A stretch of DNA of 56,554 nt from contig MFUP01000014.1 in the NCBI GenBank assembly GCA_001785735.1, forward strand, positions 1 through 56,554. Reading direction: 5' to 3'. Position 1 is the first letter of the stretch, and each line of letters opens with the position of its first letter. Shown here in pieces: positions 1 through 30,870 of this stretch. Made by a program: the position numbers and the translations under genes. The stretch is from Candidatus Nomurabacteria bacterium RIFCSPLOWO2_01_FULL_33_24. Lineage in GTDB: Bacteria; Patescibacteriota; Minisyncoccia; Phycocordibacterales; MFUP01. Below the pieces are notes generated by a model that ran no database searches, was not told the DNA's origin, and saw only the letters and a list, made by a program, of their open reading frames with translations.

Positions 1-704
1 TGGGTTTCTTTTAGTATGATTATTTCTTTTGGACTAATTGAAATAGAATTATGAACAACAGGACAAAGAACAATTTCTCCCAAATTAGTATCGCTGGAAC
101 AAATTGGAATTAGTTCTAAAGATGAATTAAGATGTTGTAAACTGTTTATTTTAGTAATCCCAAAAACATTAAGTTTGGCATAAAACTCCTGCAGAGGTGC
201 CTCTCCTCCGCCTGGAGGTGCCTCTCCTCCACCTGCTTCTTCGCCCCTTCCCGGTCCTTGAGCTAAAACTGTCGGGGTTTTAATTAATTTTTTTGAAAAA
301 AAAGTCAGAATATTTTTCCCAATATTTGGATATTGAAAAGCGGTATTATTTTGTTGACTTTCCTGATACTCACCTTGTTGCTCTTGTCCCGGAATTGGAA
401 TCCCCGGATAACTTTGGGCACTTAAGGAGGGATCGCCAACAACTACCACGTCATTCGTCCCGACAGACAGCCAAGTATTATAATAAGTAGCCAAACTACC
501 TAACTCTAAACCACCATTCTTTGTTTGGTCAGTTGGACCAATATTTAAAGGGGTTGGCGTATTATTAGCTGGGGGGATTACTCCTATGGGTGGCCCATTC
601 CAGGCATGCAAATAACTAAAACCAATACTCAAAACAAAACCTATTAAAGCAATCTTTGCTATGGTCATTAAATCTTTTTTTATATTTTTGGTATTCATTC
701 TCAT
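1..704 (-). CDS. hypothetical membrane-anchored protein, partial (3' end beyond left window edge)
   Basis: Absent from the supplied ORF track because it is edge-truncated. Manual minus-strand translation from ATG at 704 (MRMNTKNIKKDLMTIAKIALIGFVLSIGFSYLHAWNGPP...) stays open to base 3. It has one N-terminal hydrophobic helix, then a Pro/Gly-rich region with tandem GGGEAP-PGGGEAP (about nt 190-240). It starts 19 nt after the stop of the giant gene, on the same strand. Confidence 0.55.
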   Translation of the reverse strand, partial: MRMNTKNIKKDLMTIAKIALIGFVLSIGFSYLHAWNGPPIGVIPPANNTPTPLNIGPTDQTKNGGLELGSLATYYNTWLSVGTNDVVVVGDPSLSAQSYPGIPIPGQEQQGEYQESQQNNTAFQYPNIGKNILTFFSKKLIKTPTVLAQGPGRGEEAGGGEAPPGGGEAPLQEFYAKLNVFGITKINSLQHLNSSLELIPICSSDTNLGEIVLCPVVHNSISISPKEIIILKET

Positions 705-723: not shown

Positions 724-3700
724 CTATATTTCTTCAAAGATTATCTCTGGTAGTGGATTAATAGGGCTATTATTTGTAAGAATCACTGAGTCAGAAACAT
801 AGACAGAAGGATCAATCTCGCTCTGACAAGTAATAGTGAGAGTAACGGGTCCAGGATAAGGACTAACAATAACGCTAGTCTTTGTCCCAGAAGTTGCAAA
901 ATTAGTGTCAGTATTCCAAACAGGAGCACCAAAAGAACTTGTGGCATTACAACTATTAGCTAATAAATTATTCCCAGACCAGCGTAAATCAACTGTCCCC
1001 GGAATCATATCTTGAGGAGGAACATTGGCAGGATCAGGAATAAAATTACTATAAGTTAAGTTTACTGTTGGAGTTAAAATTTGTTGAGAAACAACTTCTG
1101 TATCAAAGAAATGATTATTAGAAGAATCAAGACAATCTATTACATAAACGGTTGGGTTCTCTGGGGTTTCTACTTCAAGAACTGGCCCCAAAGGACTATT
1201 AGAAGTATTAGGGATAGCAATCGCTGTTCCTGTCCCAGCAGGATCCCAGTTAGCAGTTGTAATTTTCCCAGAATAATTAGAGATATCCGAGGAAGGAAGA
1301 AGGGCAGAAATTCTTGGAATAAAACTATTGTCAAAACTGTAAGCTAAACAGCTGTTGAGGTCACCAGGAGCAAAAGTATTCGTTCCCCACCTAAGACCAG
1401 TTTCATATTTTAAACTAGCAGGATTGAAAGGAGCCGGAGTTAATCCAGACAAAGCTTGAAGGTAAAGATTCCCTTCGGGATTATATTCACATGGCAAAGG
1501 CGAACCTGTGTTGGTAGCTAAAGGATCACTACAATAACCAGACATATAAATACAATCACCGTCAGAATTAATAGTCATTCCGGCTGGTAAACTATTTTGA
1601 GTTCCTAGAATATTAGGACACCAGTCTGGACCAGGATCAGGAAGACAATTACCATCAACTAAATTAAATCCAAGGGGAACAACTAATTGAATATTTGGGA
1701 TATTTGGACAAACATCTTCTGGTGGCAAAATTGTGATGGTGGTGGTATCAGCCACAATATTTTCATTTCTTATTTTATTATCAGGACTTGAGGAGGTAAT
1801 TATCTTAAATCCTGTCGTCTCTGACCATAAAATAATTGTTCGGTTAGTTGAATCTCTTGGATCAACTACCGCAGTAATATTAAATATTCCATTAGGAGAA
1901 TTATCGGGATGGGAATTAATATCATCTGTTATTTCAGCAACAATTGTAGAAATACTTGTCCAAAATCCCTTTCGTTTAGTGATTAAGATACCGTTGATAG
2001 TTATTTCATAATCAATTGTTCCTCCTGTTTCAAATATTATTTTAGAAATCAAAGTATCGGCATTAGGATCATTTCTCAGACACTCAATATCATACTCTTT
2101 TACCACTGAGGTATTATTAGTATTTGTATTTACTAAATCTGTTTGGAGAATTGTTTCGCGCCCGGTTGGATCAACTAATAAACTATAATTCCAATCTACT
2201 CCGAGAGCGGAACAACTGCCGGGTTTGGTGTCAGAACCAGTCCATTCAAGAACAGCATCTGCTCCGGGAGCAGAAGGAACAGTAATATCATCATAATAAT
2301 TTCCGGCTGGGAGAGGATCGGTGGCTTCGGTATTTTTAGCTTTAATATCTATATTAGCTCCGAGTAAAACTGGAACACTGTCATTGACTGTTCCTCCAAA
2401 TTCATCATCACAAGTAATAGTGAAAGTAGCTGATTGAGTAAGATTTATACCAACAAAAGCTAAGCCACTTCCTGGGGTTGGAGCATTATCAGAAAGACTT
2501 TGCCCATTATACCACATAGGGATGCCAGCATTAGATGGAACAACCGAGGCAACACAACTTCCTGAAACAATATTTCTTGTTTTCCAAGTTAGTTTTATTA
2601 ACCCACCAGTAGCAGGTAAACTCAAAGAATTTTTTCCATCTGCCCTAATATCAACAATAGGAACTGTGGGAGGAAGAACATTAACATAAGCTTTTTGGTC
2701 GGCTGTCTTTTCTGTTGCTTCTGTTGCTAACCCGGAAACTCCTTGACAAGAAGTTTGGTAAACAAAAACTTTAGTTCCTATTAATGTTTGAACATCTCCA
2801 GTCGTCCCATAGTTAGTAATAATAAATTTAGAATTATTTGTATTTTTAATATCTAAGGTAATAGTAATAGTGTTATTTCCGTTCCAAACAGCGGTTACTC
2901 CTGAAGAATATTTTTTGTAATTAATCTCATTTGTCAATGTTTCAGCGTCAGCTACTAAATCTCCAGAATAAGTGACACTATCAATAGTTGCTCCATTGAG
3001 TTCAACCTTAAAACGACCTCCAAAAATAGAATTTTCTGTTAAAGTAATAATTCTACTAAAAATTGAGTTGGTTGGAGAGAAAGTAGAACGAAAAGTAGGA
3101 AAACCCATACTATCTCTACTTAAGTCTTTTACCGGGAAAGAGTTAATAAGAACTGTTTCATTCTTGGCCATCGCCACTACCTCATTTGAAACATTATTAT
3201 TAGGATCGTTGATTTCATTGGCTAGATTAATAGCGGAATTACTTAATGGAACAATTAAGGGAGTACTGATTGGATTATTATTGATAGCTAAACCGAAAGT
3301 GCCACTATTTCCACTCAAAACAACTCCCGCTAAATTGGTGTAAGATGATTGAATAATAATTTTAGCGTTATCTCCATAAACAATATTATTGGTCATATCC
3401 TCTATGGTAAATTGAGAATTTGAATAAACAGTAATTATATTTCCTGATGAGATGGCATTGATGCCAGTAGTGCCAGAATTTGAATTAATCAACGAAACTA
3501 AATTTGAAGCGGATAAGGTAAGATTATTATTAACTGTTTTATCATAAGTATTACTATTAATTTTTAGATGAAAAGTTCCGCTAGTTCCATATAATTGAGC
3601 ACTGGCTGATAAAGTATTAGAAGCAATGGTTCCGCTATTATTTAAGACTCCTGTGGTATTAAGCCCTGGACCAGGATGAAGCGGATTTTGGGTCGCGTGC

Positions 3701-6700
3701 CAACTTGGATCAGTCCAATTCCAATCACTACTAGAACCATAATTATTTGTGGATACGCAAGTGCTATAATCAACATTTCCACCCCACCACCTAATATCAA
3801 CTTCACTTCCAGAAGGAACATTGATAAGAGTATCTGGTCCAGAGGGTGTCTTTTCAACAGTTAAATTAACATAAGGATCTGGGAGAACATCAACAGTAAC
3901 TTCTTTAGGAGTCCCATCACAAGTAAGAATATATTTATAAGTATCAATTAAGGCAATGGTCATATTGGCAGGATTATATGAGTCTGTATAGAAACCATTA
4001 TTTAATTCAAAATTATCAGCCCCATCAGTAATAGAAAATGGCGTTGGTGAAGTAATTACAATTTTTGAACCAAAAGCTGTTGCTGTTAAGTTTGGAACAG
4101 TTGTTTGAATATCATTTATAAACAAAGCTATTAATTCTGCATCACTATCTGTGTCACCTGAGGCTAAAAATGGCCCAAAATGATTACCATTAATAACCAA
4201 CCAAAATTGATCATTAGTTCCAAGATCAATCCCCTCAATTCCTCCTGATAAAGTAACAATTGCTTTTTTGGTATAGGCTTGAGTACCATCATTAATTAAA
4301 GGACCTTGTGTTTCTTGACCTCCTAAAGGATTTTTATTTCCACTCCAGTTTCCAGTAGCTAGACAGCTAGACATATCTGTCGCTTCCCAAGTTAGTTCTG
4401 CCTCTGCTCCTGAAGGAATAACAATGCTGTCTGTTGGAGTATTCGGACTTGGTTTGGTATCTGGATCATCGCTTTTTACATCAAAAGTTATTCCTGAAGT
4501 ATCTTCCTCCTCTGGAAGAACAGTCACATATACTTCTTTTTTATCTATCATTCCTCCGGTTCCCGGAACTCCTTCGCATTGAACTTCGTAGGCTTTAACT
4601 ACTGTCCCTAAAGTCAGTTTTGGAGAAGAAGTTGTAATATCAAAAGTACCAGCCTGAGTAGCAACACTCTCAAGATTTACTTTAATGGTCTTGCCATTTG
4701 GAATAGCAATAATGCCAGGAATAGTATTTAATTTGGTTGATAAGCCAGAGGCATCATTTACTAAGTTTGAAGGATCAGAGGGATTTTGATATTTTGTTAT
4801 TCCATTTACTTCTATTCCCCAAGTATCTCCAGAACCTGTTGCGTTTCCAGACAAAGTAAGCATTTTTGTATAGGCATCAATAGTACTAACTGAAATTGAA
4901 TTAATGCTACTGGAAGTAGTATCTTTAGTTGGGAATGAATTAATAATAACAACATTATTTTTAGAAATTGCGGTTACTAATTCAGAAACAATCGGATCAG
5001 AGTTTATGGCATCTCTTAGGGCATTAGCAATTGCTGATTTTGTGCTCTCAGAAGCAGAGATTGGAGATCCATCAATTTCAATTTCATAAGTTCCTCCGAT
5101 ATCATCAATTGTTACTGTCGCTAATTGAACAGAGGATGTCCCAGCCCCATTGTTCTTCAGGAAATTATTTGTTTCTGCTGATCCTGCCCCTAATCCAAAA
5201 GGAGGTAAAACTTTGGTAGCATGATACCCGGGACCTTGCCAAATCCAATTAGAATCTCCGTCATTGTTGCGCGCCCTGCAATTATTAGTATCATATTTAA
5301 CATTATTTCCCCACCATTTTAGCCTGACTCGTTCTCCCGCTGAATTAGGACTAATAGAAACAACTGAACTTGGACCAACATTAGTAATAGTTCCTTCAAC
5401 AGTAAGTCCAACTTCTGGCTCTGGCAAAACAGTGACTGTAACACTTTCAGGATAATTATTTCCAGCAACATCCTGACAAGTTAAGATATATTCATAAGTA
5501 TCAACTAGGGCAATATTGATAATTAGATTTCCTCCGATTGTTCCTTCGTAACCATAATAACTTCCGGGATTAGGATTAGGTCTTTTTTCAGTAATTGTAA
5601 ACCACGAAGAAGAACTAGAAACTTCTATGGTATTTGTCCCGGTAGAAACAGCTGTTATATATCCCGGAAATGTGTCGTTAATTTTATTAATTAAAGCAGT
5701 ATAAGAATCAGTAAAATTATTATTAAAGGGAACTTCAACGGCTGTTCCTTCAATAATGACTCCAAAATAATTTCCAGAATTTCCCGATAAAGTCAAGATT
5801 GCTTTTTTGGTGACAGTTTGAGTGCCATTATTAATTAATATTCCTGTTGATTCCCCTTCTGTCCAAGGATCATTAAGATTAACTCTGGTTGGGGTGCTAG
5901 TTAAAACATCTGGAGTAATTCCCATTCCAGACAAAGTTACAATTTCGCCATTAGCAATGGCGTTAATGTTTGGCAAAGAATCCCAATCACTAGCAAAAGC
6001 GTGAGCTGCTTGAGCTGATGATGCGAAAGATTTAGTAACATAACCCTGCCCCGGAAGATTAATCTTAATTCTAAATTGTCCAGATCCAGAAAAAATAATA
6101 TCTCTCTGGAAAGTGGAAGAGATCCCTCTAGGACCTGTTCCCATAGGAGCGGCCCAATCTCCGCTGGCTTGACAACTGGTCATGTCCCCCATAGACCATT
6201 TTAATAAGGCTTCCGCTCCCGAAGGAATAATAATATCGGGATAGGCGACGGGAGAAGGAGAAGGTTGAGTATTTGGATTATCACTTTCTACGGTAAATAT
6301 TCCCGACGAAGACCCAATTTCAACTCCGGTTGGAAAAACAGAAACAAAAGCGCTATCAAAAACTTCAGAATCAGAATTAGGAACTCCTCCACAATAAAGA
6401 TCGTATTCATGAACAACCGTTCCAACAACAAAATCTCCGCTGGTAGTAATATCTTTTTGAAGTTTAAAATAAGAACCATTATAATTTGTATCAATTGAGT
6501 TGAGAGTGATATAAATATCCGCTCCCTCCGCTTTAGCCGTAAAGTATTTATTAAGGCTATTATCATTATTTATTTTATTTGCCAAATCTTGAGCATAATC
6601 AGAAAATGGAAGAATTGGGGTCTGCCAAGATAAAGAAGATATTGAGATACCGTTAATTTCAATGCCATATTTTTGAGAACCATTAGTTAAACTATTGGTA

Positions 6701-9700
6701 ATAGTTACTTTCCTCGCCCTAGAAGAAGAAATGGGGTTTATTGTTATTTTATTTGAAAGACTGGACTTATCAACAATCCGAAGGGAAGAAATAATTATTT
6801 CTCCATCCACTACCGTTGCAACCACCTCTTGATTAACAGATGAATTATTATTTATATTTGTAGCTAGAGTTGAAGTATCGCTCCCCGTAATTACCGTTCC
6901 ATTAATTTCCACTCCGGCTGTTCCTGAATTAACCACAACCGATCCAAGTTGAGTCTGAACAGGTTGGATAATTAATTTTACATCTCCAGAACTATTATCT
7001 AAAACATTAAGAAAATTACCGCTATCTTTTCTAATAATAATTTGTGATCCACTTACTGAAGCTGAGTATTGCGAATGGGAATCAATAGCATCACTTAATT
7101 CAGCTATTGGATCAGGAACACTAGATAAAACTGAGAAATTATTACTAAAATCAACCGTTAATTTAAAAGTTCCAGTAGCTCCTGTGGATTTTGACAAGGC
7201 AACGCTCATAATATTCATATCGCTCTTAATTAAACCTCCATCACCAGTATTTTCCACGGGAACATTAAGATTTCCTCCCGGGCCAGGTGGCGATAATAAG
7301 GGTTGAGTAGCGTGAAAACCGGCGCTTGTCCATTGCCAATCTCCGGGGGGAGTATTTCTTGCATCATAATTATTCTTAGCCCAACAAGTGTCATAATTGA
7401 CATTATGAGCCCACCATTGAATATCAATCGTTTCTCCGTCAGAAACTGCTTCTGCTTTTCTATAAACTAGGTCTGATGATTTCTTCACGGATAAATCATT
7501 GTCTGCTTCAGGAAGAACATTCACAATAACTTTTTCAGATGGGGTAATCGGAGTCCCACTTGAATCATTACAACTTAATTCATATTCAAAAGTTTTAACT
7601 AAGGCTATTGCCAAATTTGCGATTCCGGTTGAATCAACCGCTTGTCTAATTGTAAAAGGAGAAGAAGAGATTATCTCTATTAATGGAGCGGAGGGGTCTG
7701 GTTGAGAGGCGATAAGATTAGGTATTCCCAAATTATTAATTTCTATCACAATGAAACCAGTATCGACTTTTTTATCAAAAGAAGAAGTAACAAGGTTTGT
7801 TGTATAATCTGTTCCTCCTATTCCAAAAATAATTTTATATTCTCCGCCCGTCGTGCTTGGTTCTACGGTTAAAATTGCTTTTTCGGTGTCAGTCGCTGTT
7901 CCGTCATTGATTAAAGGCCCCTCTGTTTCACTGCCAGAATCAGCTTTACTGCCAGTAGTAGTCCAATCACCAGAAGCAAGACAAGATCCCGGATCAATAT
8001 CGGTAGCGACCCATTCCAAATCAATTTCCGCTCCCGAGGGAATAATAATATCGGAATAGGCGGCGGGAGAAGGAGAAGGTTGAGTATTTGGATTATCGCT
8101 TTCTACTGTTAGAGTTATTCCGGTTTGAGGTTCGATTCCTATCGGCAAAACAGTCACATAGGCCTCTTCATAAGCGGTAGTTCCATCCACTCCCAAACAA
8201 TTAAGATTGTATTCTCTAACTTTTGTCCCCACCGTGACATCTCCAGTCATCGTTGAACTCTTAGTTAAAGTAAAGGCAGAAGCAGTATTACTATTATTAG
8301 AGGCATTGAGAGTAATAGTAATTTTATTTCCATCTAAGGTGGTGGTTGTGCCAGCTATAGATATTAGATTAAAAATTTCAAGAGCGGCCTCAGTAGCTGT
8401 TTCTCCCGGACCAAGAGGATAAGAATAAGAGGATCCATTAATCTCAACCTTAAAAGTGTCTCCTGAACTTCCTCCGGTGAAGGTGATTGTTTTTGTTCTA
8501 GTTGTCGGATCAGAAAGAGAAGAAACTGTTGTTGTGGCTGGATTATTTGGTCCAAAATCAATGTGGCCAACAACACTAAGGGCGGTAATTATTACGGTAG
8601 TTCCTTCTCGGTGAGCAATTACTTTTTTGTTAACAGAAGTATTTGTATTTATGGCAATAGCCAGATTTTTAGCTATTTTCCCTTCAGATAAAGCTGGGGA
8701 AAAAGCAACACTAATCGGAGTCCCGTTAATAATCGCTCCATAGAAGGCAAGATTAATACTATTATTTACTGTAATTGACCCTAACTTTGTAGCAATTGAT
8801 TCAATCATAATGTGAGCATTGCCACCAGAGGTAGAGGAGGAATCAATATTAAATAAAGTTGAAGAACTTAAAGTAATTACTGGACCATTTTGAGTGGTAG
8901 TTAAACCAGTAATCGCCAATGAATCAATTTCATTCTTTAAACTAAGAGCATCGGCTGTAAGATCTCCAGTGGCCGAGACATTAATAGGTTGGGAATTAAT
9001 TTTTATTTCAAAAGTGCCAGCGGTTCCTGATAAAGTAGCCGAAGCCACAGTCGTATTAGCGGTTAATCCATCATTTTCTAATTGAAAAGTTGCTTGAGTT
9101 CCTATCCCTGAAGGATCAAGGGGTGGTTTGGTGGCGTGAAAACTAGGAAAACCATTAAACCACCAATCAGAGAAGGACCCATAATTATTAGCGCCATAAC
9201 ATTGGTTGTATTTTACATTATGAGCCCACCATTTAAGAATCACATCATCCCCGTCATAAACAACAGCTGTCGATGGACTAGCAGAAAATGGGTCATCAAC
9301 TATCAAGCTAACTGATGGTTTTGGAAGAACAGTGACGGTGACACTTTCTGGATAATCATTTCCACCAGCATCATGACAAGTTAAGATATATTCGTAAGTA
9401 TCAACTAAGGCAATATCAATATTCCCGTCTCTGTATGCGTCACTTGTATTAAAATCGGTAACAGAGAAAGGTCCGCTAACTGATTCTAAAATCATGACAT
9501 ATGGATTTAACGGGTCTTTGCTGGCAAGAACAATTGGGCTTAAAACTGGATCAGCATTTATATATAAAACCATGGCATCAACGGCTAAATCGGCAGTGGT
9601 GGAAGAACTTTTTATGACTGAGTAGATGTTATTGATAGTAATTTCAAAAGTACTGTCATAGCCTGAGAAAGTTAGAATTGCTTTTTCGGTGTCAGTAGCT

Positions 9701-12700
9701 ATCCCGTTATTGATTAAGGGAGAAGTTAATTGAAAACCTGAAGTATTAATCGCATTGCTCCAATCTCCGGAAGCATCACAGCTGGTCATATCGGTTGTTG
9801 ACCAAACTAATTTAGCTATCTCTCCTGAATTAATAGTAATATCAGAAGCGGAAGCAGGAGGATTAGGATCTCTCTCAACGGTGAAAGTTAAACTAGGGTT
9901 AATTCGTTTTCCAGCCGGGAGAATAGTGACATAACTATAATCTTCTGTTGAAAAATTGGTAGAAGAAATCCCCTCACAAGAAAGCTGATAACTATGGACA
10001 GTTGTTCCGATGGTGATGGCCCCGACGGTAGAACCGCCATCAATAATTTCAAAGAGGGGAGCATCGGAATTATTTATCTCTGAAGTCAGAGTAATAACAT
10101 TGTATTTGGAGGAAAAATCTACATCACTGTGACTCTGAGTCAAATTACTACCTAAATTATGGGCTTCCTGATGAAGAGTTTTGGTATTGATTGTCTCTGA
10201 AACCGGAGAAGGACTGGTAAATGATAATTTATTTAGGGAAGCCTTAAAAGACCCGGTAACAAGATTACTGGTCTTATCTAAGAAAATCTTTTTTTCTCTG
10301 GCAGAAATTGAACTAATTGAAATATCGGCACCAGAAAGAGGAAGAATATCTTTTTTGATTTCTGTTTTAAAAGAGTTTATAATGACTACATTTTGTTCGG
10401 CAGTTGCCCCAACACTAGAAACAAAAGTGGAATTAGAAACCGAGGGAGCAGAACCACTATTATCTTCATTTATTTTTTCTGCTAAATCTTGGGCTGTGGT
10501 ATTTTTATCTGTATTCCAAGGAACGGAAGAAGTGATTCCGTTAATTTCAACAACCACTGTTCCACTAGTTCCATTTATGGTAATGGTTGCCAGTCGAGTA
10601 GTAATTGATTCAACAGAAATAAAAGCATCTCCCCCAGAAGTATCTAAGGCGTCAATATTAAAAGAATTGGTGTCATCATAAATATCACTATTAGATTTAA
10701 TTGTTATTATCTCATCAACCGCCGTGGCCGAAACGCCAGCAATATCAGCGGTTATTAATCTTGCTAATTCTGTAGCGACTTGAGCTAAAGTTGGATAGGT
10801 TGAACCAAGAGTAACACTTTTAGTTATTCCCTTAATCTTTATTTTAAATTCTCCTCCAATATTGCTTCCGGACAAGATGGCGGTAGCAGCGGTAGTAAAA
10901 ATTAAGCTCCCGTCATTAACCGCCTCTGTTGGGATAATTTGAGTAGTTCCCGATGATCCATCATCTCCTATATTAAACAAAGAACCTGTTGAGGAACTTG
11001 TAATTATTATTGTTTTACCATCTGCATCTGTAGGATCAATGGAAGCGGTAACAAAGAAAGCTTCACCATTGGTAGCAATATTGTTTATCTTGTCTTTTAA
11101 TTTATCGGCTGTTATCTTTAAAGAAGTATCAAATAACTGAATAATCGATTGATCATTAATTCTAATATTAAAATTATTACCAATAATGCCACTAACAAGT
11201 TTTATTTTAACTTCTTTAAGAGTTCCAATTCCCTGTTTTCCTGCTACCGGAGTCAAAGACCCTTTATGTCCATGATAACTAGGATCTGACCAATCCCACT
11301 CTCTTCCTTGAAAAGAATTTTCTGTGTAACTATTTTCAGCTTGGCAAGAACTGTAATCTACATTATGACCCCACCATTTGAGGCGTCCCCAATCATCACC
11401 GCCCATCCAGTCAGGAAGAACAGAATAATCTGCTCCGGAGACAACACTGACCGCCGGTAAAAAGCCCCCTCCGGTATTTTTAGTTCTAGCAGTTAAATCA
11501 GAAGTTGGTTCTGGTAAAATTGTAATTGTGGCTGTTTCAGTAAAAATATTATTGTCAACATTGGTACAAATTAAGGTATACTTTTTAACAATTGTGTACC
11601 CAATCTCAATATTAGGTGGAGAATTACTATTGACATCTTTTTCTGTCCCTTCGTCTGTGATAGTGAATGGAGTTGTAGAAATAATAATTATTTCTGATGT
11701 ACCCGGTTCTCGTGATACTGTCATCCCAGAAGCATAGTTATCAATATAAGAAGAAATATAGCTTACCAACATTTGAGCAGTACTTTCGGGACTTGATTGA
11801 GCAAAAATGGGACCAATTGGATTTCCATCAATCTTAAGACCAAATTTATCAGAAGAACCAGAAGTGCCTCCCGAGACAGTAAGAATTGCTTTTTCAGTAC
11901 TAGTAGCTGTTCCGTCATTAATTAAAATTCCCGTGGTTTCTCCTTCGGTTTTTCCAAGAGACATATTTCCTGTCCCAGAGATACTAACGGTAAAAGAAGT
12001 AGAGCCGCTAGAATCAATAAAAACTTTAGACGATAAGTTTGACCCGTTATGGGCAGTAGCTTTAATAGCGCTAACCCCGGCAGAATTTATTGCTTGGGCT
12101 AAATTATCGGCAGTGGTTGATAAATTAGTATCATAATTTTCGGAGACAGAAATAGAATTTAGAGTGGTATCAGTAGGAATAATATTAAGATTAAAAGTAC
12201 CAGAAGTTCCAGTTAATGTTACTTCTTGAGAAAGAACAATGGCTGGGTTTGGAGAGTAAGGATTGCGACTGGTTCCCAACCCAAGTCCAATGTTTCCACC
12301 GGCCCAATCACTACCAACGCCAGAAGAGGCTGATTCACAGATAAGGGAATCGTCATCGCTGTCCCAAGTTAAAATTGCTTCCGCCCCAGAAGGAACAGTA
12401 AGATCAGTAGTTTTCCCAGAGGGATAAGCGTAAGGATCATCACTTTCAGCTTTTAACCCGAGAGAAAAAACATAATCAAGAACTCCCGCATAGACTGTTC
12501 TGCTGATACTACTAATAGACCCTAAAGTAGGACAAGAAAGGGTATATTTTCTTACGGTACTGATAACATCCATTTCTCCTGCATCCCCAGTAGTGGAATT
12601 AGAAACAGTGAATGAATTTCCTGTTTTTGTTTCAATTAAAATAATACTAATACCAAGGATCTCATCATATAAATGTTTAACTTCTACCAAAGAATTAAGA

Positions 12701-14430
12701 GTTGGATTATTTTCAATTCTTTCTTTTATATCATCAGTTGTTCCATAGGAAGAATTTTTCCAAGTTGTATTAATGGTTTCTGTCCCAATTGTTATTCCAA
12801 AATTTGATGGAAGCCAATGTCCAGCATTCCCCCGGACAGCAATTAATGCCAAATCCGTAGTATTAGAACCAGAACTCAAAAGCGAACCGGTTGATTCTCC
12901 TGTTTCAAAAATAGGATCCCCTACTATGGAAAATGATGTGGAATTTGTTGGAATTTTTGGAATAATGGAAACAGTGGTCGCTGGTTTGAATATATTTGCG
13001 GCTGCTCCTAACCAAGAATCATAATAACGAGCATAAATAATTAAATCACTACCCTGAGTTTCAGCAAAATATAATGTCTTCAAGGAACCACTATTAATCT
13101 TATTAGCTAAATCAATAACTACATTATTTATATTATTATTGTTAGTTGAAGAGATTGATACTCCGCTTAGAGAAAGATTAAAGGTACTTTTTTCGGGATT
13201 AAGGAGATCAATTGGAGCAAAAAAAGTTATTTTCTGTTTTAAGTTTGTTGGGGAAACAATTGCTGTCGCGCCCCCATTGGTGCTCATAGTTACTTGAATA
13301 TCAACATTTGGATAAAAAGAGGATAAAATTATATCTCCCCTAATTGAAGAAGCGCAAACATAACTAGGACACCACACATCATTAACTTGCTTAGCTAAAG
13401 ATTTAGCCGCGTCATTCGCCGATAAGGCCGGGTTATTAGAAGAAAGAGGGGCCTTATATATCCAAGGATTGGAACCACCATAAAAATCATAAAGATATTT
13501 CCAAAGTTCCAAGGAAAAATAACCAGTACCGTCAAGTTCAACTTTTGTAGTGATTCTCCGGCCAGACGAACTTCGTCTATTCCCGGGATTTGGCCAATCA
13601 GCTTGAGCCGTACAAGCATCATAATTTGATTGTTTAGCAAGATCCCTCCCCCTCCAATTAAGAACAGCTTGATTCCCAGTTTCAACAACAACAACATTTG
13701 CTGGGCCAAAAGGAGGAGGAAGAAGATTCTGATCTTTCTCTATCGTAAGATCTAAAAAAGGTATTCTGAGTTTGGCTTTTACTCCCTGACTTCCGCTAAA
13801 AAAATTAATCCACCCAAAAACATTTGATCCCCAGGCATTCCCGATAAAAGAATTTTCATTTGTTGAGCTTCCTGAATTTTTATAAATATGTTTATAAGTA
13901 ACCCCGCCATTACCAGTTCCATCAGGAGAAGAATGATTAGCTCCCGAAAGTTCAATCCAACCATCCCAGCCACCAAGTTTGGCTCCTGTTAAACTTTCAG
14001 TAGCCCCGCTACAACCAGTTAAATAGACTTTGCAAGCCCGAATCCAACCAGTTACTTTCCCAAAATTGACATTATTTATTGGAGGAGTTAATTCAACTTT
14101 AGCCTTGCAATCATTAGGATCAGTTGGTTGATCAGGACAAATATCCACAGAAAAATCTGGATTAAAATTAATCCAACCAATATTATCTGACCAAGCCATT
14201 CCAGAGAGTTCCCCTGTCATATCGTCCATGGCCACTTCCCATCCGGAACCAACACAAGAAGAATCATTTAAACAAGAAAAACTGATCCAACCGATATTAT
14301 CAGACCAAGCATAACCTCTTAGGGTTCCATACGCCCCGGCCGCCAAGGTTTGATTAGTAAAAAGAGAAAAACCAAAAATAAACAAAAAAATAAAAATGAC
14401 TAAATATGAGATTATATACTTTTTACTCAT
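724..14430 (-). CDS. giant modular secreted/cell-surface protein (4,568 aa), function unknown
   Basis: Single uninterrupted minus-strand frame. I place the start at ATG 14430 (MSKKYIISYLVIFIFLFIFGFSLFTNQTLAAG, signal/anchor-like). The 14431-14613 extension overlaps the upstream small ORF in another frame. The body has N-terminal W-x-DNIGWI-F repeats, five super-repeats marked by WW[AG]xNVxY..C, and many ~80-100 aa units with a central IN dipeptide. Repeated Cys-containing beta-sandwich-like modules end in Y.L.C....V.VLP, and the C-terminus has Cys-bracketed CPNI..G.Q...P.G repeats. Confidence 0.85.
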   Translation of the reverse strand: MSKKYIISYLVIFIFLFIFGFSLFTNQTLAAGAYGTLRGYAWSDNIGWISFSCLNDSSCVGSGWEVAMDDMTGELSGMAWSDNIGWINFNPDFSVDICPDQPTDPNDCKAKVELTPPINNVNFGKVTGWIRACKVYLTGCSGATESLTGAKLGGWDGWIELSGANHSSPDGTGNGGVTYKHIYKNSGSSTNENSFIGNAWGSNVFGWINFFSGSQGVKAKLRIPFLDLTIEKDQNLLPPPFGPANVVVVETGNQAVLNWRGRDLAKQSNYDACTAQADWPNPGNRRSSSGRRITTKVELDGTGYFSLELWKYLYDFYGGSNPWIYKAPLSSNNPALSANDAAKSLAKQVNDVWCPSYVCASSIRGDIILSSFYPNVDIQVTMSTNGGATAIVSPTNLKQKITFFAPIDLLNPEKSTFNLSLSGVSISSTNNNNINNVVIDLANKINSGSLKTLYFAETQGSDLIIYARYYDSWLGAAANIFKPATTVSIIPKIPTNSTSFSIVGDPIFETGESTGSLLSSGSNTTDLALIAVRGNAGHWLPSNFGITIGTETINTTWKNSSYGTTDDIKERIENNPTLNSLVEVKHLYDEILGISIILIETKTGNSFTVSNSTTGDAGEMDVISTVRKYTLSCPTLGSISSISRTVYAGVLDYVFSLGLKAESDDPYAYPSGKTTDLTVPSGAEAILTWDSDDDSLICESASSGVGSDWAGGNIGLGLGTSRNPYSPNPAIVLSQEVTLTGTSGTFNLNIIPTDTTLNSISVSENYDTNLSTTADNLAQAINSAGVSAIKATAHNGSNLSSKVFIDSSGSTSFTVSISGTGNMSLGKTEGETTGILINDGTATSTEKAILTVSGGTSGSSDKFGLKIDGNPIGPIFAQSSPESTAQMLVSYISSYIDNYASGMTVSREPGTSEIIIISTTPFTITDEGTEKDVNSNSPPNIEIGYTIVKKYTLICTNVDNNIFTETATITILPEPTSDLTARTKNTGGGFLPAVSVVSGADYSVLPDWMGGDDWGRLKWWGHNVDYSSCQAENSYTENSFQGREWDWSDPSYHGHKGSLTPVAGKQGIGTLKEVKIKLVSGIIGNNFNIRINDQSIIQLFDTSLKITADKLKDKINNIATNGEAFFVTASIDPTDADGKTIIITSSSTGSLFNIGDDGSSGTTQIIPTEAVNDGSLIFTTAATAILSGSNIGGEFKIKIKGITKSVTLGSTYPTLAQVATELARLITADIAGVSATAVDEIITIKSNSDIYDDTNSFNIDALDTSGGDAFISVESITTRLATITINGTSGTVVVEINGITSSVPWNTDKNTTAQDLAEKINEDNSGSAPSVSNSTFVSSVGATAEQNVVIINSFKTEIKKDILPLSGADISISSISAREKKIFLDKTSNLVTGSFKASLNKLSFTSPSPVSETINTKTLHQEAHNLGSNLTQSHSDVDFSSKYNVITLTSEINNSDAPLFEIIDGGSTVGAITIGTTVHSYQLSCEGISSTNFSTEDYSYVTILPAGKRINPSLTFTVERDPNPPASASDITINSGEIAKLVWSTTDMTSCDASGDWSNAINTSGFQLTSPLINNGIATDTEKAILTFSGYDSTFEITINNIYSVIKSSSTTADLAVDAMVLYINADPVLSPIVLASKDPLNPYVMILESVSGPFSVTDFNTSDAYRDGNIDIALVDTYEYILTCHDAGGNDYPESVTVTVLPKPSVSLIVDDPFSASPSTAVVYDGDDVILKWWAHNVKYNQCYGANNYGSFSDWWFNGFPSFHATKPPLDPSGIGTQATFQLENDGLTANTTVASATLSGTAGTFEIKINSQPINVSATGDLTADALSLKNEIDSLAITGLTTTQNGPVITLSSSTLFNIDSSSTSGGNAHIMIESIATKLGSITVNNSINLAFYGAIINGTPISVAFSPALSEGKIAKNLAIAINTNTSVNKKVIAHREGTTVIITALSVVGHIDFGPNNPATTTVSSLSDPTTRTKTITFTGGSSGDTFKVEINGSSYSYPLGPGETATEAALEIFNLISIAGTTTTLDGNKITITLNASNNSNTASAFTLTKSSTMTGDVTVGTKVREYNLNCLGVDGTTAYEEAYVTVLPIGIEPQTGITLTVESDNPNTQPSPSPAAYSDIIIPSGAEIDLEWVATDIDPGSCLASGDWTTTGSKADSGSETEGPLINDGTATDTEKAILTVEPSTTGGEYKIIFGIGGTDYTTNLVTSSFDKKVDTGFIVIEINNLGIPNLIASQPDPSAPLIEIISSSPFTIRQAVDSTGIANLAIALVKTFEYELSCNDSSGTPITPSEKVIVNVLPEADNDLSVKKSSDLVYRKAEAVSDGETIDIQWWAHNVNYDTCWAKNNYDARNTPPGDWQWTSAGFHATQPLLSPPGPGGNLNVPVENTGDGGLIKSDMNIMSVALSKSTGATGTFKLTVDFSNNFSVLSSVPDPIAELSDAIDSHSQYSASVSGSQIIIRKDSGNFLNVLDNSSGDVKLIIQPVQTQLGSVVVNSGTAGVEINGTVITGSDTSTLATNINNNSSVNQEVVATVVDGEIIISSLRIVDKSSLSNKITINPISSSRARKVTITNSLTNGSQKYGIEINGISISSLSWQTPILPFSDYAQDLANKINNDNSLNKYFTAKAEGADIYITLNSIDTNYNGSYFKLQKDITTSGDFVVGTVVHEYDLYCGGVPNSDSEVFDSAFVSVFPTGVEIGSSSGIFTVESDNPNTQPSPSPVAYPDIIIPSGAEALLKWSMGDMTSCQASGDWAAPMGTGPRGISSTFQRDIIFSGSGQFRIKINLPGQGYVTKSFASSAQAAHAFASDWDSLPNINAIANGEIVTLSGMGITPDVLTSTPTRVNLNDPWTEGESTGILINNGTQTVTKKAILTLSGNSGNYFGVIIEGTAVEVPFNNNFTDSYTALINKINDTFPGYITAVSTGTNTIEVSSSSSWFTITEKRPNPNPGSYYGYEGTIGGNLIINIALVDTYEYILTCQDVAGNNYPESVTVTVLPEPEVGLTVEGTITNVGPSSVVSISPNSAGERVRLKWWGNNVKYDTNNCRARNNDGDSNWIWQGPGYHATKVLPPFGLGAGSAETNNFLKNNGAGTSSVQLATVTIDDIGGTYEIEIDGSPISASESTKSAIANALRDAINSDPIVSELVTAISKNNVVIINSFPTKDTTSSSINSISVSTIDAYTKMLTLSGNATGSGDTWGIEVNGITKYQNPSDPSNLVNDASGLSTKLNTIPGIIAIPNGKTIKVNLESVATQAGTFDITTSSPKLTLGTVVKAYEVQCEGVPGTGGMIDKKEVYVTVLPEEEDTSGITFDVKSDDPDTKPSPNTPTDSIVIPSGAEAELTWEATDMSSCLATGNWSGNKNPLGGQETQGPLINDGTQAYTKKAIVTLSGGIEGIDLGTNDQFWLVINGNHFGPFLASGDTDSDAELIALFINDIQTTVPNLTATAFGSKIVITSPTPFSITDGADNFELNNGFYTDSYNPANMTIALIDTYKYILTCDGTPKEVTVDVLPDPYVNLTVEKTPSGPDTLINVPSGSEVDIRWWGGNVDYSTCVSTNNYGSSSDWNWTDPSWHATQNPLHPGPGLNTTGVLNNSGTIASNTLSASAQLYGTSGTFHLKINSNTYDKTVNNNLTLSASNLVSLINSNSGTTGINAISSGNIITVYSNSQFTIEDMTNNIVYGDNAKIIIQSSYTNLAGVVLSGNSGTFGLAINNNPISTPLIVPLSNSAINLANEINDPNNNVSNEVVAMAKNETVLINSFPVKDLSRDSMGFPTFRSTFSPTNSIFSRIITLTENSIFGGRFKVELNGATIDSVTYSGDLVADAETLTNEINYKKYSSGVTAVWNGNNTITITLDIKNTNNSKFIITNYGTTGDVQTLIGTKVFVYQTSCQGVSGLATEATEKTADQKAYVNVLPPTVPIVDIRADGKNSLSLPATGGLIKLTWKTRNIVSGSCVASVVPSNAGIPMWYNGQSLSDNAPTPGSGLAFVGINLTQSATFTITCDDEFGGTVNDSVPVLLGANIDIKAKNTEATDPLPAGNYYDDITVPSAPGADAVLEWTGSDTKPGSCSALGVDWNYSLLVDPTGRETILQTDLVNTNTNNTSVVKEYDIECLRNDPNADTLISKIIFETGGTIDYEITINGILITKRKGFWTSISTIVAEITDDINSHPDNSPNGIFNITAVVDPRDSTNRTIILWSETTGFKIITSSSPDNKIRNENIVADTTTITILPPEDVCPNIPNIQLVVPLGFNLVDGNCLPDPGPDWCPNILGTQNSLPAGMTINSDGDCIYMSGYCSDPLATNTGSPLPCEYNPEGNLYLQALSGLTPAPFNPASLKYETGLRWGTNTFAPGDLNSCLAYSFDNSFIPRISALLPSSDISNYSGKITTANWDPAGTGTAIAIPNTSNSPLGPVLEVETPENPTVYVIDCLDSSNNHFFDTEVVSQQILTPTVNLTYSNFIPDPANVPPQDMIPGTVDLRWSGNNLLANSCNATSSFGAPVWNTDTNFATSGTKTSVIVSPYPGPVTLTITCQSEIDPSVYVSDSVILTNNSPINPLPEIIFEEI

Positions 14431-14732
14431 TGAGATAAGCTGTCTAAAATTTCTTGTTTTTGTTCTAAAGAATAGGTGTCTTCTGATGGGAATTCTTCCA
14501 TTATTTTTATCATTTCTTTTTCGGACAATTCTCTTTGATCCAAAAAACGATTGAAGCCAATGAGAGCCATAACTATTAAAATAACAAGAATAGTAATTAA
14601 AAAAAACTTCCATTTATTTTTTGGGGTTTTTGAAATGATAGCAACTGGTTTTTCAGAATAAGAATAAGAATCTGTTTTTTTGTTTTGATTTTGAAGACTA
14701 AAATCTTGAAATTGATTTTTATTTTCTTCCAT
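14427..14732 (-). CDS. small single-pass membrane protein, translationally coupled to the giant gene
   Basis: 101-aa ORF with one clear TM helix (WKFFLITILVILIVMALIGF). Its stop overlaps the ATG of the giant gene (ATGA at 14427-14430). Confidence 0.6.
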   Translation of the reverse strand: MEENKNQFQDFSLQNQNKKTDSYSYSEKPVAIISKTPKNKWKFFLITILVILIVMALIGFNRFLDQRELSEKEMIKIMEEFPSEDTYSLEQKQEILDSLSQ

Positions 14733-14822
14733 AAATATGCCACTATTATACCACCAAGAGTATTTAAAAACAAAAGATAATAATTAAAATATTAATGTGG
14801 ATAAAACAGCGACTAAATAAGA

Positions 14823-14859: not shown

Positions 14860-14889
14860 AAGTCCGTCTCGAAACGGACTTTCGTTTTT
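14860..14889 (+). terminator. intrinsic-terminator-like hairpin in the nusA 5' leader (possible attenuator)
   Basis: The 8-bp stem aagtccgt/acggactt with 6-nt loop is followed by tcgttttt. It lies between divergent genes, so it terminates no upstream + strand gene. Confidence 0.4.
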
Positions 14890-27252: not shown

Positions 27253-28008
27253 ATGATTGAAAAAATCCTAAAACAATTAAATTTCTCGTCAAAAGAAATA
27301 GAAGTTTATTTAATAATAACAAAAATTGACCAAGCCTCAGTATCATTAATATCAAAAGAAACAAATATAAATCGAACTACTATATACGATATTCTGGAAA
27401 ATCTTATGTCAAAAGGTATTGTTTCAAAAATTAAAAAATCAAGTAAATCCTTTTTTTATGCATTACCTCCTAGTAGACTTACTGATTATCTTGAAAGAGA
27501 AAGACGAGAATATAATCTAAAAATAGATATTCAGAAAGAAAGAATAGAAAAAATAATGCCTGAATTAATTTCTTTACAAAATTTGCATTCAAAGAATAAA
27601 CCCAGGGTTCATTTCTTTAGCGGGGAAAAAGGGATGAGGGAAGCCTATGAAGATTCCTTAACGGCTGAAGGAACGATCCGCGCTTATGCAAATGTAGAAG
27701 AAATGCATAAGGGATTGCCTAATTTTTTTCCTGAATATTATAAAAGAAGAACTCAGGCAAATATTCATATCAAAGCGATAATCCCCCAAAATGAGATTTC
27801 AAAAAGTAGAGTGCAAAAAAATAGTGAAGAAATGAGAACAACAAAATTTTTGCCAGAAGAAAAAATGACATTTAGTCCGGAAATTAATATTTATAATGAT
27901 AAAGTTCTTCTTGTTTCTTGGAGGGAATCAATGGCCATCATCATCCAATCAAAAGAATTGGCTGATTTTCATAAATTGACCTATGACCTATTGTGGGATA
28001 ATTTATAA
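27253..28008 (+). CDS. TrmB-family winged-helix transcriptional regulator
   Basis: N-terminal LNFSSKEIEVYLIITKIDQASVSLISKETNINRTTIYDILENLMSKGIVSKIKK matches the TrmB-type HTH pattern. Confidence 0.6.
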   Translation: MIEKILKQLNFSSKEIEVYLIITKIDQASVSLISKETNINRTTIYDILENLMSKGIVSKIKKSSKSFFYALPPSRLTDYLERERREYNLKIDIQKERIEKIMPELISLQNLHSKNKPRVHFFSGEKGMREAYEDSLTAEGTIRAYANVEEMHKGLPNFFPEYYKRRTQANIHIKAIIPQNEISKSRVQKNSEEMRTTKFLPEEKMTFSPEINIYNDKVLLVSWRESMAIIIQSKELADFHKLTYDLLWDNL

Positions 28009-28623
28009 TTTTTTAACACTACAACCCTTGGCTTTGTGGGCATCATTTCTTATTCCTCTCATCCCATAACCGTCAAAATAAAAACCAAGTACTTTTCTGG
28101 TTCCATAAACATTTGAAACGATTGTTCTTCCTTTTGATTTTCTTATTTCTCTAGGAATTCTTACCATCCCTGTGGTTAAATTTCCATCATCGGCTATTTT
28201 ATCAATCATTTCTGCCTCTTTTGTTGAAACACCATCAACAACAAGGGTGGGGATAGCATTGTTTCCTCCAATAAATTCCCAGTGGTAAGTTTTTTTCCAT
28301 TTATTTTTAGGCCAAGCATTTAAATAAGGACCATTCCAACCCTTGGCGGGCCTATTTCCTTTATAAGAAAAATTTCCTGAAACAAACATGGCTGTTTCGC
28401 AGACATCACCCCAATTAGCATCGTAACCGGGAAGCTCTTGGACATCATTAATATACGCGATGATAGCTTGATTCATTTCGCTAGCTTGGGCAATAGTGGC
28501 CACCACTCTTGCTCTTGTCCGGGCAGAATTAAGAGGAATCATTACAATACTAACTAAAAGACTCATTATGGCAATAACGACAAGCAATTCAATTAGGGTA
28601 AATCCCCGCTTATTATTCATCAT
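28003..28623 (-). CDS. type IV pilin / pseudopilin (prepilin N-terminal cleavage-methylation domain)
   Basis: KRGFTLIELLVVIAIMSLLVSIV class-III signal peptide. Confidence 0.85.
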   Translation of the reverse strand: MMNNKRGFTLIELLVVIAIMSLLVSIVMIPLNSARTRARVVATIAQASEMNQAIIAYINDVQELPGYDANWGDVCETAMFVSGNFSYKGNRPAKGWNGPYLNAWPKNKWKKTYHWEFIGGNNAIPTLVVDGVSTKEAEMIDKIADDGNLTTGMVRIPREIRKSKGRTIVSNVYGTRKVLGFYFDGYGMRGIRNDAHKAKGCSVKKL

Positions 28624-28891
28624 ACTCTAAGGTAATCATTTCTGGATTATCATTAATAAACTCTTCGGAATAATACTGATTATCTTTTTGTTGAAACCAG
28701 CCAAAAGAAAGGAAAAAGGCAACAAGAAAACAAAAAACAACCAGCCCGATCAAAAAATAATTTGCCTGTTTTTCATTTTTTATAAAACCACCAAAATGCT
28801 TTAGGACCCATTGGGTCATTTTTGATTCATAAAACCTATTTTCATGTTTTTTAATTTCTGGTTGATTTAAAAATTCAATATCATCAGACAT
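28613..28891 (-). CDS. small membrane protein upstream of the pilin gene
   Basis: 92-aa ORF with one TM helix (YFLIGLVVFCFLVAFFLSFGWF). It overlaps the pilin start by 11 nt. Confidence 0.45.
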   Translation of the reverse strand: MSDDIEFLNQPEIKKHENRFYESKMTQWVLKHFGGFIKNEKQANYFLIGLVVFCFLVAFFLSFGWFQQKDNQYYSEEFINDNPEMITLEYDE

Positions 28892-28921
28892 CGTTTATAT
28901 AATTGAAATTGTAACATGCTA

Positions 28922-29012
28922 TGCAGTATTCTTGAATTAGTCCGAGCGCATTTCGCCGCCTGCGGCGGCGACGGCCAGCCCACCAAAATTTGAGCGGCTT
29001 CGCCGCGCTCTT
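28922..29012. repeat. left terminal inverted repeat of the GC-rich island
   Basis: Positions 28932-29005 match the reverse complement of 30486-30559 with 3 mismatches over 74 nt. Weaker similarity extends to about 91 nt. It contains an internal GC hairpin, cgccgcc-tgc-ggcggcg. Confidence 0.8.
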
Positions 29013-29077
29013 TGACAATTTCAAGTTTTTCTATGAGTTAATCATAACTCATCACAGTAAATTTTCTAGCACCTTTA

Positions 29078-29117
29078 CAAAAAGAAAAAGGGTTCGCCAC
29101 CTTGCGATAGCGAACCC
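29078..29117 (-). terminator. rho-independent terminator of the PurM-like gene
   Basis: On the minus strand, gggttcgc-(12 nt)-gcgaaccc followed by tttttcttttt, 22 nt after the stop. Confidence 0.7.
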
Positions 29118-29138
29118 ATGAGTTTTGGAGTTTGTGAG

Positions 29139-30696: not shown

Positions 30697-30700
30697 TATA

Positions 30701-30846: not shown

Positions 30847-30870
30847 CAAAAAATTTAAAAATTTTGATTT

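Follow-up and report, generated by a model that had tools for sequence, protein, structure and literature searches.

What does a single gene of 4,568 codons provide to a bacterium with a reduced genome of low guanine-plus-cytosine (GC) content? This question is raised by contig MFUP01000014.1 of Candidatus Nomurabacteria bacterium RIFCSPLOWO2_01_FULL_33_24, a stretch of 56,554 nucleotides (nt) that was analysed as a whole and is called the window here. At its left end, a giant gene on the minus strand is preceded by the gene for a small membrane protein and followed by a third, truncated open reading frame (ORF). We consider the giant product to be probably a cell-surface fibril or adhesin of a cell belonging to the Candidate Phyla Radiation (CPR, Patescibacteria), most likely a long fibre attaching to a partner cell, and to represent a member, expanded to an extreme degree in this lineage, of a surface-protein family found across the Patescibacteria. 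This family is defined by an N-terminal domain of aromatic beta-hairpins (the N-domain), a variable middle and a short C-terminal tag. CPR bacteria are ultrasmall episymbionts, and to our knowledge the way in which they recognize and hold a host is largely unknown outside a few cultivated Saccharibacteria.

An earlier note on this DNA, made from the sequence alone, had described an uninterrupted frame of 4,568 amino acids (aa), a start codon overlapping the stop of a 101-aa ORF as ATGA at 14427-14430, and a third, anchored ORF 19 nt downstream. All three observations were confirmed, the first of them by the ORF list and by four independent assemblies. The genes in question are the following:

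724..14430, minus strand: giant gene (ORF list, translation, matching independent assemblies)
14427..14732, minus strand: ORF of a 101-aa single-pass membrane protein (ORF list), whose TGA stop overlaps the giant ATG as ATGA
1..704, minus strand: third ORF, at least 234 aa, cut by the left window edge, with its ATG at 704 after a 19-nt gap behind the giant stop

The open frame runs uninterrupted from 14613 to 724, and the gene comprises 4,568 codons from the ATG at 14430 to the stop codon at 724-726. An alternative start at the ATG at 14613, which would add 61 residues (4,629 aa), was rejected, as it overlaps the small ORF by 186 nt and lacks a signal peptide. The 61 extra residues are non-hydrophobic and precede an otherwise typical signal peptide, and the gene calls on four other assemblies, at 4,568 or 4,569 aa, speak against this start as well. 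An exact look-up of the 4,568-aa and the 4,629-aa products returned no record, the window variant differing by at least one residue from the recorded ones.

The window is 99.85-99.995% identical, over up to 21 kb, to contigs of ERZ28563625, ERZ4903072, ERZ27254767 and JGI 3300025317. This comparison covers 3,172 codons of the giant, the last 4.2 kb (3' end) of the gene lying outside it, and revealed zero stop codons and one in-frame codon insertion that yields a 4,569-aa variant. The longest DNA repeats within the gene have lengths of 84 nt (94% identity) and 126 nt (82%), and the repeats of the protein are 25-50% identical. Since four assemblies match, the frame is intact and the internal repeats have diverged, a repeat collapse or a chimeric frame is improbable.

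The same data bear on the wider possibility that the gene is an artefact, a pseudogene or mobile or phage-derived cargo, the frame having arisen by wrong assembly of a repeat or being what is left of a prophage tail or fibre module. Three observations point in this direction: the modules in the body of the protein have relatives in phage tail sheaths, relatives of the third ORF carry Peptidase_S74 or collagen repeats typical of phage fibres, and every contig ends 690-830 nt beyond the gene. However, there were zero PHROG matches, and the family occupies a fixed chromosomal position across many genomes. In addition, the neighbours are core genes, namely nusA and the genes for a membrane H+-pyrophosphatase, trigger factor (tig), ClpP (clpP) and RNase Y (rny). 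These are located downstream on the opposite strand, together with the genes for an extracytoplasmic function (ECF) sigma factor and phosphoribosyl pyrophosphate (PRPP) synthase. An artefact or a phage remnant is extremely improbable in our view, and largely refuted by the matching assemblies, the diverged repeats and the core neighbours.

The NusA encoded in the window shares no more than 74% identity with species representatives, the best matches coming from metagenome-assembled genomes (MAGs) of Candidatus Nomurabacteria/Paceibacteria. Because of these matches and the core-gene neighbours, the window is assigned to the chromosome of an uncultivated Patescibacteria species. The GC content amounts to 29-39%, save for one segment of 45%, and the earlier expectation of a reduced low-GC genome was thus borne out.

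Anatomy of the giant protein

The giant was divided into a predicted signal peptide, the N-domain, a long body of PKD/immunoglobulin (Ig)-like domains and the C-terminal tag. Ig-A and Ig-B are names given in this analysis to the two domain kinds of each super-repeat, and the modules are Flagellin_IN-like units nested in these domains:

14338..14430, minus strand: signal peptide, residues 1-31 (MSKK, a 20-residue hydrophobic core, T-L-A/A-G)
13726..14337, minus strand: N-domain, residues 32-235 (four aromatic beta-hairpins, G-x-AWS-x-N-x-GWI-x-F)
12514..13725, minus strand: first PKD/Ig-like domain, residues 236-639 (Cys273...Cys633; at least two Flagellin_IN-like modules, 407-469 and 528-613)
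9949..12513, minus strand: super-repeat 1, residues 640-1494 (Ig-A with two modules, Ig-B with three to four)
8146..9948, minus strand: super-repeat 2, residues 1495-2095 (Ig-A with one module, Ig-B with three)
6334..8145, minus strand: super-repeat 3, residues 2096-2699 (Ig-A with one module, Ig-B with three; low-confidence structure model)
4534..6333, minus strand: super-repeat 4, residues 2700-3299 (Ig-A with two modules, Ig-B with two)
2716..4533, minus strand: super-repeat 5, residues 3300-3905 (Ig-A with one module, Ig-B with three)
751..2715, minus strand: residues 3906-4560 (four further Ig-like domains, one of them with one module, and a six-Cys segment)
727..750, minus strand: tag PEIIFEEI, residues 4561-4568 (carboxyl-terminal hydrophobic-x-E-F/I, not followed by a transmembrane segment)

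Residues 1-31 are predicted to form a Sec-type signal peptide, which would be cleaved by signal peptidase I: the T-L-A/A-G site is typical of this enzyme, and homologues of the giant carry equivalent N-termini. Together with the arrays of putative beta-sandwich domains, this N-terminus supports the earlier description of the giant as a secreted, modular protein that starts with a signal peptide. The N-domain follows directly after the signal peptide in most homologues, of which the search found at least 847 at E<=1e-3; among the 120 matches listed, all source names were Patescibacteria or an unnamed bacterium. A hidden Markov model (HMM) built from 92 homologues scored the giant at E=1.3e-55, which places it in a family named 'AWS-NIGWI' here. 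No Pfam family covers the N-domain. An AlphaFold2 model from 92 sequences was all-beta, with a predicted local distance difference test score (pLDDT) of 80 and a predicted template modelling (pTM) score of 0.78. Foldseek found no relative of this model in the PDB (best E=0.18, TM <0.2) or in BFVD (best E=0.058), and the sequence profile of the domain had no match in the PDB. The N-domain is fused behind prepilin N_methyl domains in three homologues (P0018, P0041, P0086) and also occurs in proteins with PG_binding_1, LysM or GIY-YIG domains. The fusions to prepilins and to PG_binding_1/LysM proteins fit the N-domain as a putative surface-exposed binding module. An odd architecture was found in P0059, P0117 and P0120, in which a GIY-YIG nuclease domain of cytoplasmic type is combined with a membrane segment, AWS-NIGWI repeats and PG_binding_1.

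The body consists of five super-repeats of about 600 aa with starts at about 640, 1495, 2096, 2700 and 3300, which share about 36% identity, plus a related first unit. In total, we counted about 15 PKD/Ig-like domains, 12 of which carry one to four nested modules. Ig-A (about 90 aa) follows the pattern ...L-x-W...S-C-x-A-S-G-D-W...Y-x-L-x-C...V-x-V-x-V-L-P, and Ig-B (about 90 aa) the pattern ...W-W-x-H-N-V-x-Y-x-x-C...H-A-T-K-P-P...Y-x-L-x-C-x-G.... The six-Cys segment (residues 4241-4314) is made of C-P-N-I-x-G-x-Q...G-x-C type repeats, and a match to it was also obtained in a short member of the family in L069, in the C-terminal part of that protein. An exhaustive search with the super-repeat profile against 1.84 billion representatives returned 645 matches, nearly all of which correspond to the Ig part alone; its domains occur there in tandem and without interruption, in large proteins from many bacteria. 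When such contiguous homologues were compared with K319L-like_PKD, weak matches were obtained for 5 of 14 copies (best E=4.4e-4), and the match to a titin Ig domain had E=0.3; 'PKD/Ig-like' is therefore meant as an informed label for a putative relationship rather than as proven membership.

The nested units could be named more firmly. An iterated HMM recovered 22 strong (E<=1e-11) and three weak copies of a module of about 75 aa with the consensus ...G-x-F-x-I-x-I-N-G...T-A-x-x-L-A-x-x-I-N...V-x-A...I-x-I.... Against the PDB, the module profile matched flagellin (6b5b_F, E=1.2e-5) and phage tail sheaths (8kee_A, E=0.0018; Phi92 gp130, E=0.046). Flagellin_IN (PF07196) itself matched 3 of the 22 single modules weakly (best E=0.013); its gathering threshold was not reached, and the giant as a whole remained without a Pfam match. 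The super-repeat profile also hit the module array of a true flagellin, P0165 (Flagellin_N plus Flagellin_C), at E=1.8e-21, and the module HMM found eight copies in this protein. These matches indicate that the modules are probably homologous to the variable-region modules of true flagellins, and they allow the repeated units, left without a name in the earlier note, to be called Flagellin_IN-like modules nested in PKD/Ig-like domains. An AlphaFold2 model of the super-repeat, based on the five paralogues, was poor (pLDDT 49), with the Ig-like parts below 50 and the modules at 60-77, and its Foldseek matches were used only where sequence-profile matches agreed. In this model, the modules adopt a beta-beta-alpha-beta-beta arrangement, and outer domains of tail sheaths can be locally superposed on them with a probability of 1.0 and a root-mean-square deviation of about 4 A over about 100 columns.

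The nesting itself is apparent from homologues without insertions. A contiguous P0121 homologue of about 90 aa aligns to residues 2105-2168 and 2280-2312, which flank the module at 2185-2264, and an uninterrupted Ig-B of P0181 aligns with the N-part of the giant Ig-B. Each split domain keeps exactly two cysteines, one per part (698/955, 1029/1485, 1551/1685, 1744/2078, 2150/2287, 2349/2680, and further pairs likewise). Because it is at just these two positions that the contiguous homologues have their invariant cysteines, a disulfide bond that would staple the halves of each split domain is a natural inference. None of the best 150 of the 645 matches combines Ig-like domains with IN-type modules; within the reach of our searches, the repeated nesting of flagellin-type modules inside Ig-like domains thus appears to be new.

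Amino acid differences between strains cluster at residues of about 475-500 and 589-594 (window 12940-13010 and 12645-12665). These stretches correspond to the first two Flagellin_IN-like modules and include the one-codon indel, and the remaining compared residues (3,172 in total) are nearly invariant. As far as three sequences allow, this would fit an exposed part under diversifying pressure.

The giant ends with ...NSPINPLPEIIFEEI and has no hydrophobic segment there. In its strict form, a hydrophobic-x-[E/D]-hydrophobic tag at the carboxyl end was found in 39 of 120 N-domain homologues, compared with 23 of the 1,003 ORFs that served as background (odds ratio 20, p=2.5e-25), the tag-positive background ORFs being mostly signal-peptide proteins themselves. 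Across 1.4 Mb of related DNA, the tag terminates 23 of 369 ORFs with signal-peptide-like N-termini versus 5 of 706 without (p=2e-7). Its consensus reads P(-6)-x-[F/Y/V/I/W](-4)-x-E(-2)-[F/I](-1), and it was also present in 3 of the best 150 of the 645 super-repeat profile matches, which come from many kinds of bacteria. No NCBIfam sorting-domain model matched it, and the combination of LPXTG, hydrophobic segment and basic tail is not present at the C-terminus of the giant. The earlier note had seen neither LPXTG nor any other sorting motif; the former part holds, the latter does not, since a tag of sorting type ends the protein. In one relative (L092), an HtrA-type protease with PDZ domains is encoded at 11917-13212, about 2.8 kb downstream of the family genes. 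PDZ domains bind C-terminal hydrophobic peptides, and for this reason the PDZ/HtrA-type protease class might be a candidate reader of the tag, as a single anecdotal case.

The presence of two conserved ends around a variable middle would also suit a surface layer or envelope scaffold, in which the giant lies along the cell as a coat and self-assembles through its ends, the tag of one molecule or of another tagged protein docking into the next N-domain in the manner of cohesin-dockerin pairs or strand exchange. The occurrence of the tag on secreted proteins without an N-domain is in line with such docking, and the 'IN' modules of flagellins and tail sheaths are typically outward-facing decorations of polymers. 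On the other hand, SLH or any other known S-layer module is absent, and size and domain arrays vary from 280 to 4,568 aa between close relatives, which is unusual for a lattice former. A scaffold is therefore quite improbable as the function of the giant, and we prefer to regard it as a projecting fibril.

Searches for a more specific activity were negative. Toxin, RHS, haemagglutinin or RTX repeats were not found in the giant (Pfam and NCBIfam at E<=1, PDB sequence search); the earlier note had likewise named no catalytic or toxin motif. Readings of the giant as a toxin, RTX protein, sortase substrate, SLH S-layer protein or prophage product were rejected, no matching family having been found in Pfam, NCBIfam, the PDB or PHROGs.

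Partner genes and the type IV pilus position

The small ORF encodes a protein with a basic N-terminus, one transmembrane helix and an external E/K-rich tail with L-S/T-x-E-E-K-x-x-I-L-x-x-L repeats. Among 80 genomes anchored on nusA, 23 contain an N-domain protein of 280-1,570 aa within 10 kb upstream of nusA, and all 23 share the strand that the giant has relative to nusA; the tag or a close variant ends most of them. A homologous single-pass protein of 97-181 aa, with the same architecture and two or three EEK-IL repeats, adjoins the N-domain gene in 15 of the 24 nusA-anchored loci (window counted). It lies immediately upstream with a gap of at most 4 nt in 7 of these 15, the window included, and the six relatives have gaps of 2-4 nt, matching the ATGA overlap. 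Six further loci were sampled independently, being fetched via N-domain matches and not via nusA, and 4 of them have the small protein in the same cluster. The link between the small membrane ORF and the giant, noted earlier from the overlap, is thus real and conserved.

The third ORF begins with a signal peptide or anchor, followed by W-N-G-P-P...P-P-A-N-N...P-L-N-I-G...Q-T-K-N-G-G-L. The corresponding fibre motif, W-T/S-x-P...P-P-x-x-N...P-L/I-N-V...Q-x-K-x-G-x-L, was found in 23 of 5,354 ORFs. Each of the 23 shares its strand with an N-domain gene that is 0-4 kb away, by which the third ORF is assigned to a conserved partner family. Some relatives carry collagen repeats or a Peptidase_S74 intramolecular chaperone, features that mark trimeric fibres. 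The synteny check suggested earlier for the small ORF, the giant and the anchored ORF therefore has a twofold outcome: a trio of small membrane protein, N-domain protein and fibre-like protein is kept in shorter relatives (280-1,570 aa), and the giant body is found beside nusA in none of the 80 genomes.

The position of the trio introduces a further explanation. The gene pilB is located upstream of nusA in 45 loci and is followed by pilC and N_methyl pilins in relatives. It is directly adjacent to nusA (79-442 nt) in about 16 loci, and in many others the N-domain module fills a gap of 1-9 kb between pilB and nusA on the same strand as pilB-pilC-pilins. The giant occupies the place at which the type IV pilus operon of relatives begins. 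Genes pilB-pilC-pilins are also the neighbours of the closest N-domain homologues (P0009, P0011, P0013). From these arrangements and the natural fusions of prepilin N_methyl domains with AWS-NIGWI repeats, it could be argued that the N-domain proteins are accessory adhesins of type IV pili, which the pilus would display or bind in the way known from PilY1/PilC tip adhesins or modular pilins, and that the small membrane and fibre proteins are part of the pilus machinery. We consider this unlikely, as the giant has an ordinary Sec signal peptide and not a class III prepilin signal, PF07963 (N_methyl, class III signal) matching neither the giant nor the small ORF nor the third ORF. Neither a PilY1 nor a PilC domain was detected in the giant, pilB was not seen in the window, and in L088 and L092 the trio with the fibre-motif protein occurs with zero pilus genes within 8 kb. 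The core unit is hence the trio itself, for which a connection with type IV pili is frequent, not obligatory.

Taken together, we propose that the giant is a surface fibril of roughly 0.5 MDa that would be exported by the Sec pathway. Its variable middle may have grown by duplication of the super-repeat of about 600 aa, giving a stalk of about 15 disulfide-stapled PKD/Ig-like domains, and the loops of 12 of these would bear 22-25 modules of Flagellin_IN type as lateral decoration, as on flagellar filaments and phage sheaths. The gene would be co-transcribed and translationally coupled with that of the small membrane protein, a putative dedicated assembly or retention partner, and the gene of the fibre-type protein follows. 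After export, one conserved end would hold the giant at the cell surface. The tag is more likely to be this retained, cell-proximal end, because it is common to unrelated secreted proteins, as expected for a generic sorting signal. The stalk, whose length could reach several tens of nanometres if about 15 putative beta-sandwich domains are strung together, would then project the N-domain. This domain is more likely to be the distal, ligand- or glycan-binding end because it is also grafted onto pilins, like the adhesive modules of modular pilins. Attachment to a host cell, a partner cell or a substrate would occur via the N-domain. The opposite polarity, with the N-domain proximal to the cell, and a head-to-tail docking of the tag into the N-domain are less likely.

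Several findings weigh against this proposal. The giant body was absent beside nusA in the 80 related genomes. The N-domain has no structural relative, so that its binding role is a guess, and Pfam, NCBIfam and PHROGs gave no ligand-binding family for the giant. The beta-sandwich assignment draws on the PKD-like matches, which are weak even at their best (E=4.4e-4), and on the sequence pattern, because the super-repeat model is poor; it should be read as tentative. The tag of the giant has its proline at -8, where the consensus places it at -6. With regard to the pilus position, type IV pilus genes are close by in only 3 of the 6 N-domain loci that were sampled independently, and the window ends within the third ORF before any pilB could show.

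A more far-reaching interpretation is that the N-domain, the tag, the small 'EEK-IL' protein and the fibre proteins (W-T-x-P...P-x-N...Q-x-K-x-G-x-L) form a Patescibacteria-specific surface-display or fibre-assembly system that has not been described before. This idea is tentative, and we would rather doubt than expect it. If it is true, the tag (P-x-hydrophobic-x-E-F/I) would be a new sorting or docking signal without a transmembrane segment, and in many cases there would be a genetic link between the system and type IV pili. Its largest cargo would then be the giant, with an architecture of a rare kind in which flagellin-type modules are placed inside disulfide-stapled Ig-like domains.

Further features of the window

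Upstream of the small ORF, one additional element was read from the sequence:

14745..14753, minus strand: TGgTATAAT, which resembles an extended -10 element and lies 12 nt upstream of the small-ORF ATG

This element is a possible promoter, the transcript of which would be nearly leaderless. As it has no -35 hexamer, it was not flagged by the sigma-70 consensus scan, which returned 59 sites in comparison to 48 +/- 8 in shuffled sequence, i.e. no excess. On the plus strand, a strong terminator-like hairpin (eight pairs, then a T-run) is present at 14860-14881, just upstream of the nusA start at 14915. No plus-strand gene precedes the hairpin, and it may serve the nusA operon as a leader or attenuator.

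At the other end of the locus, all retrievable giant-carrying contigs (L001-L003) break within the third ORF, 690-830 nt past the giant stop. The break is close to a 21-nt tandem repeat coding for GGGEAPPGGGEAP (window 188-236), which suggests a repeat or a strain-variable stretch that disrupts short-read assembly. A 50-nt exact search and a protein search with the third ORF in metagenome contigs gave no leftward extension of the locus.

The segment of raised GC content lies at 28000-30300 (0.45 versus about 0.33 around it), across an AIR-synthase-related gene (29139-30296, minus strand). Beyond it come four clustered tRNA genes (Gly, Pro, Arg, Gly; 30623-31918) and, about 2.8 kb past the last tRNA, a tyrosine recombinase of XerC/D or phage-integrase type at 34677-35564. 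Far from the giant gene, a prepilin-type protein of 206 aa is encoded at 28003-28623 (minus strand; N_methyl, E=6e-10), and this shows that type IV pilins are present in the genome. A co-oriented cluster at 44387-55597 (plus strand) comprises mostly unannotated membrane or secreted proteins, among them a TSP3-repeat protein, proteins of 655 aa and 874 aa of unknown kind, and, at 51692-53740, a P-loop ATPase of VirB4/TraG-like type. The cluster has the look of a conjugation module of Gram-positive type or a module related to type IV secretion.

Comparison with known systems

The locus yields testable parts, namely a phylum-wide N-domain, a candidate C-terminal retention signal and a conserved three-gene module. 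The giant shows an approximately ten-fold inflation of such a module via super-repeat duplication and clearly illustrates how one domain can be inserted into another again and again in nature. Should a display system indeed be formed by the tag and its partners, this would help to predict the surface proteome of thousands of uncultivated genomes.

Giant adhesins with Ig-like repeats are represented by SiiE of Salmonella, the 7,651-aa adhesin of Mobiluncus mulieris and stalks of the Ebh/SasG type. Like these, the protein studied here is a very large single polypeptide that starts with an export signal and has a long array of putative beta-sandwich domains as a stalk as well as conserved end modules; no other gene nearby comes close to its gene in size. 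Unlike them, it has no LPXTG, no type I secretion system (T1SS) signal and no BIg, Cadherin or Big Pfam domain. Its host domains are interrupted by nested alpha/beta modules, and its end modules are CPR-specific. A match of the whole architecture to an already characterised adhesin family, named earlier among the results that would refute the observation, was not obtained, the giant belonging to none of the SiiE, Mobiluncus and SasG/Ebh families.

The closest precedent by lineage and general description is found in Parcubacteria/OD1, for which unique beta-rich repeat proteins of more than 1,500 aa, 'indicative of adhesins', have been reported (Nelson & Stegen 2015, PMC4508563); their domain anatomy is not given there. 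An example of this kind is the 2,618-aa protein P0181, which shares the N-domain, both Ig types and the tag. In contrast to P0181 and the other profile matches, in which the Ig-like domains are uninterrupted, those of the giant are interrupted by IN-type modules. The modules resemble Flagellin_IN (PF07196) and the outer domains of tail sheaths (8kee, 9cb9) in being units of about 75 aa with a beta-beta-alpha-beta-beta arrangement and the same signature. Unlike in flagellins and sheaths, they sit in the loops of Ig-like domains of a Sec-secreted protein, and no flagellar genes were shown in the window.

With modular pilins, a concept in which adhesive modules are grafted onto pilins (PMC8179133), and with PilY1, the family has in common the gene position of relatives beside pilB-pilC-pilins and the grafting of N-domain repeats onto prepilins. 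The giant differs from both by the lack of a prepilin signal or a PilY1 domain and by the occurrence of the trio away from pilus genes. In cultivated Patescibacteria, type IV pili are reported to mediate host binding (PMC11623550).

The tag is comparable to LPXTG, PEP-CTERM, PGF-CTERM, GlyGly-CTERM and MYXO-CTERM as a short C-terminal motif on unrelated signal-peptide proteins of one lineage. In contrast to the LPXTG/PEP-CTERM class, there is no transmembrane helix or basic tail, and the tag is the carboxyl end itself. The literature that was searched contained no description of the N-domain, the tag, the trio or the nested modules. We conclude that the giant is of a kind already known, that of the large beta-rich, adhesin-like repeat proteins of Parcubacteria (PMC4508563), and that what is new, within the reach of our searches, is the N-domain family as defined here, together with the tag at the C-terminus and a conserved trio that is placed at the pilus operon.

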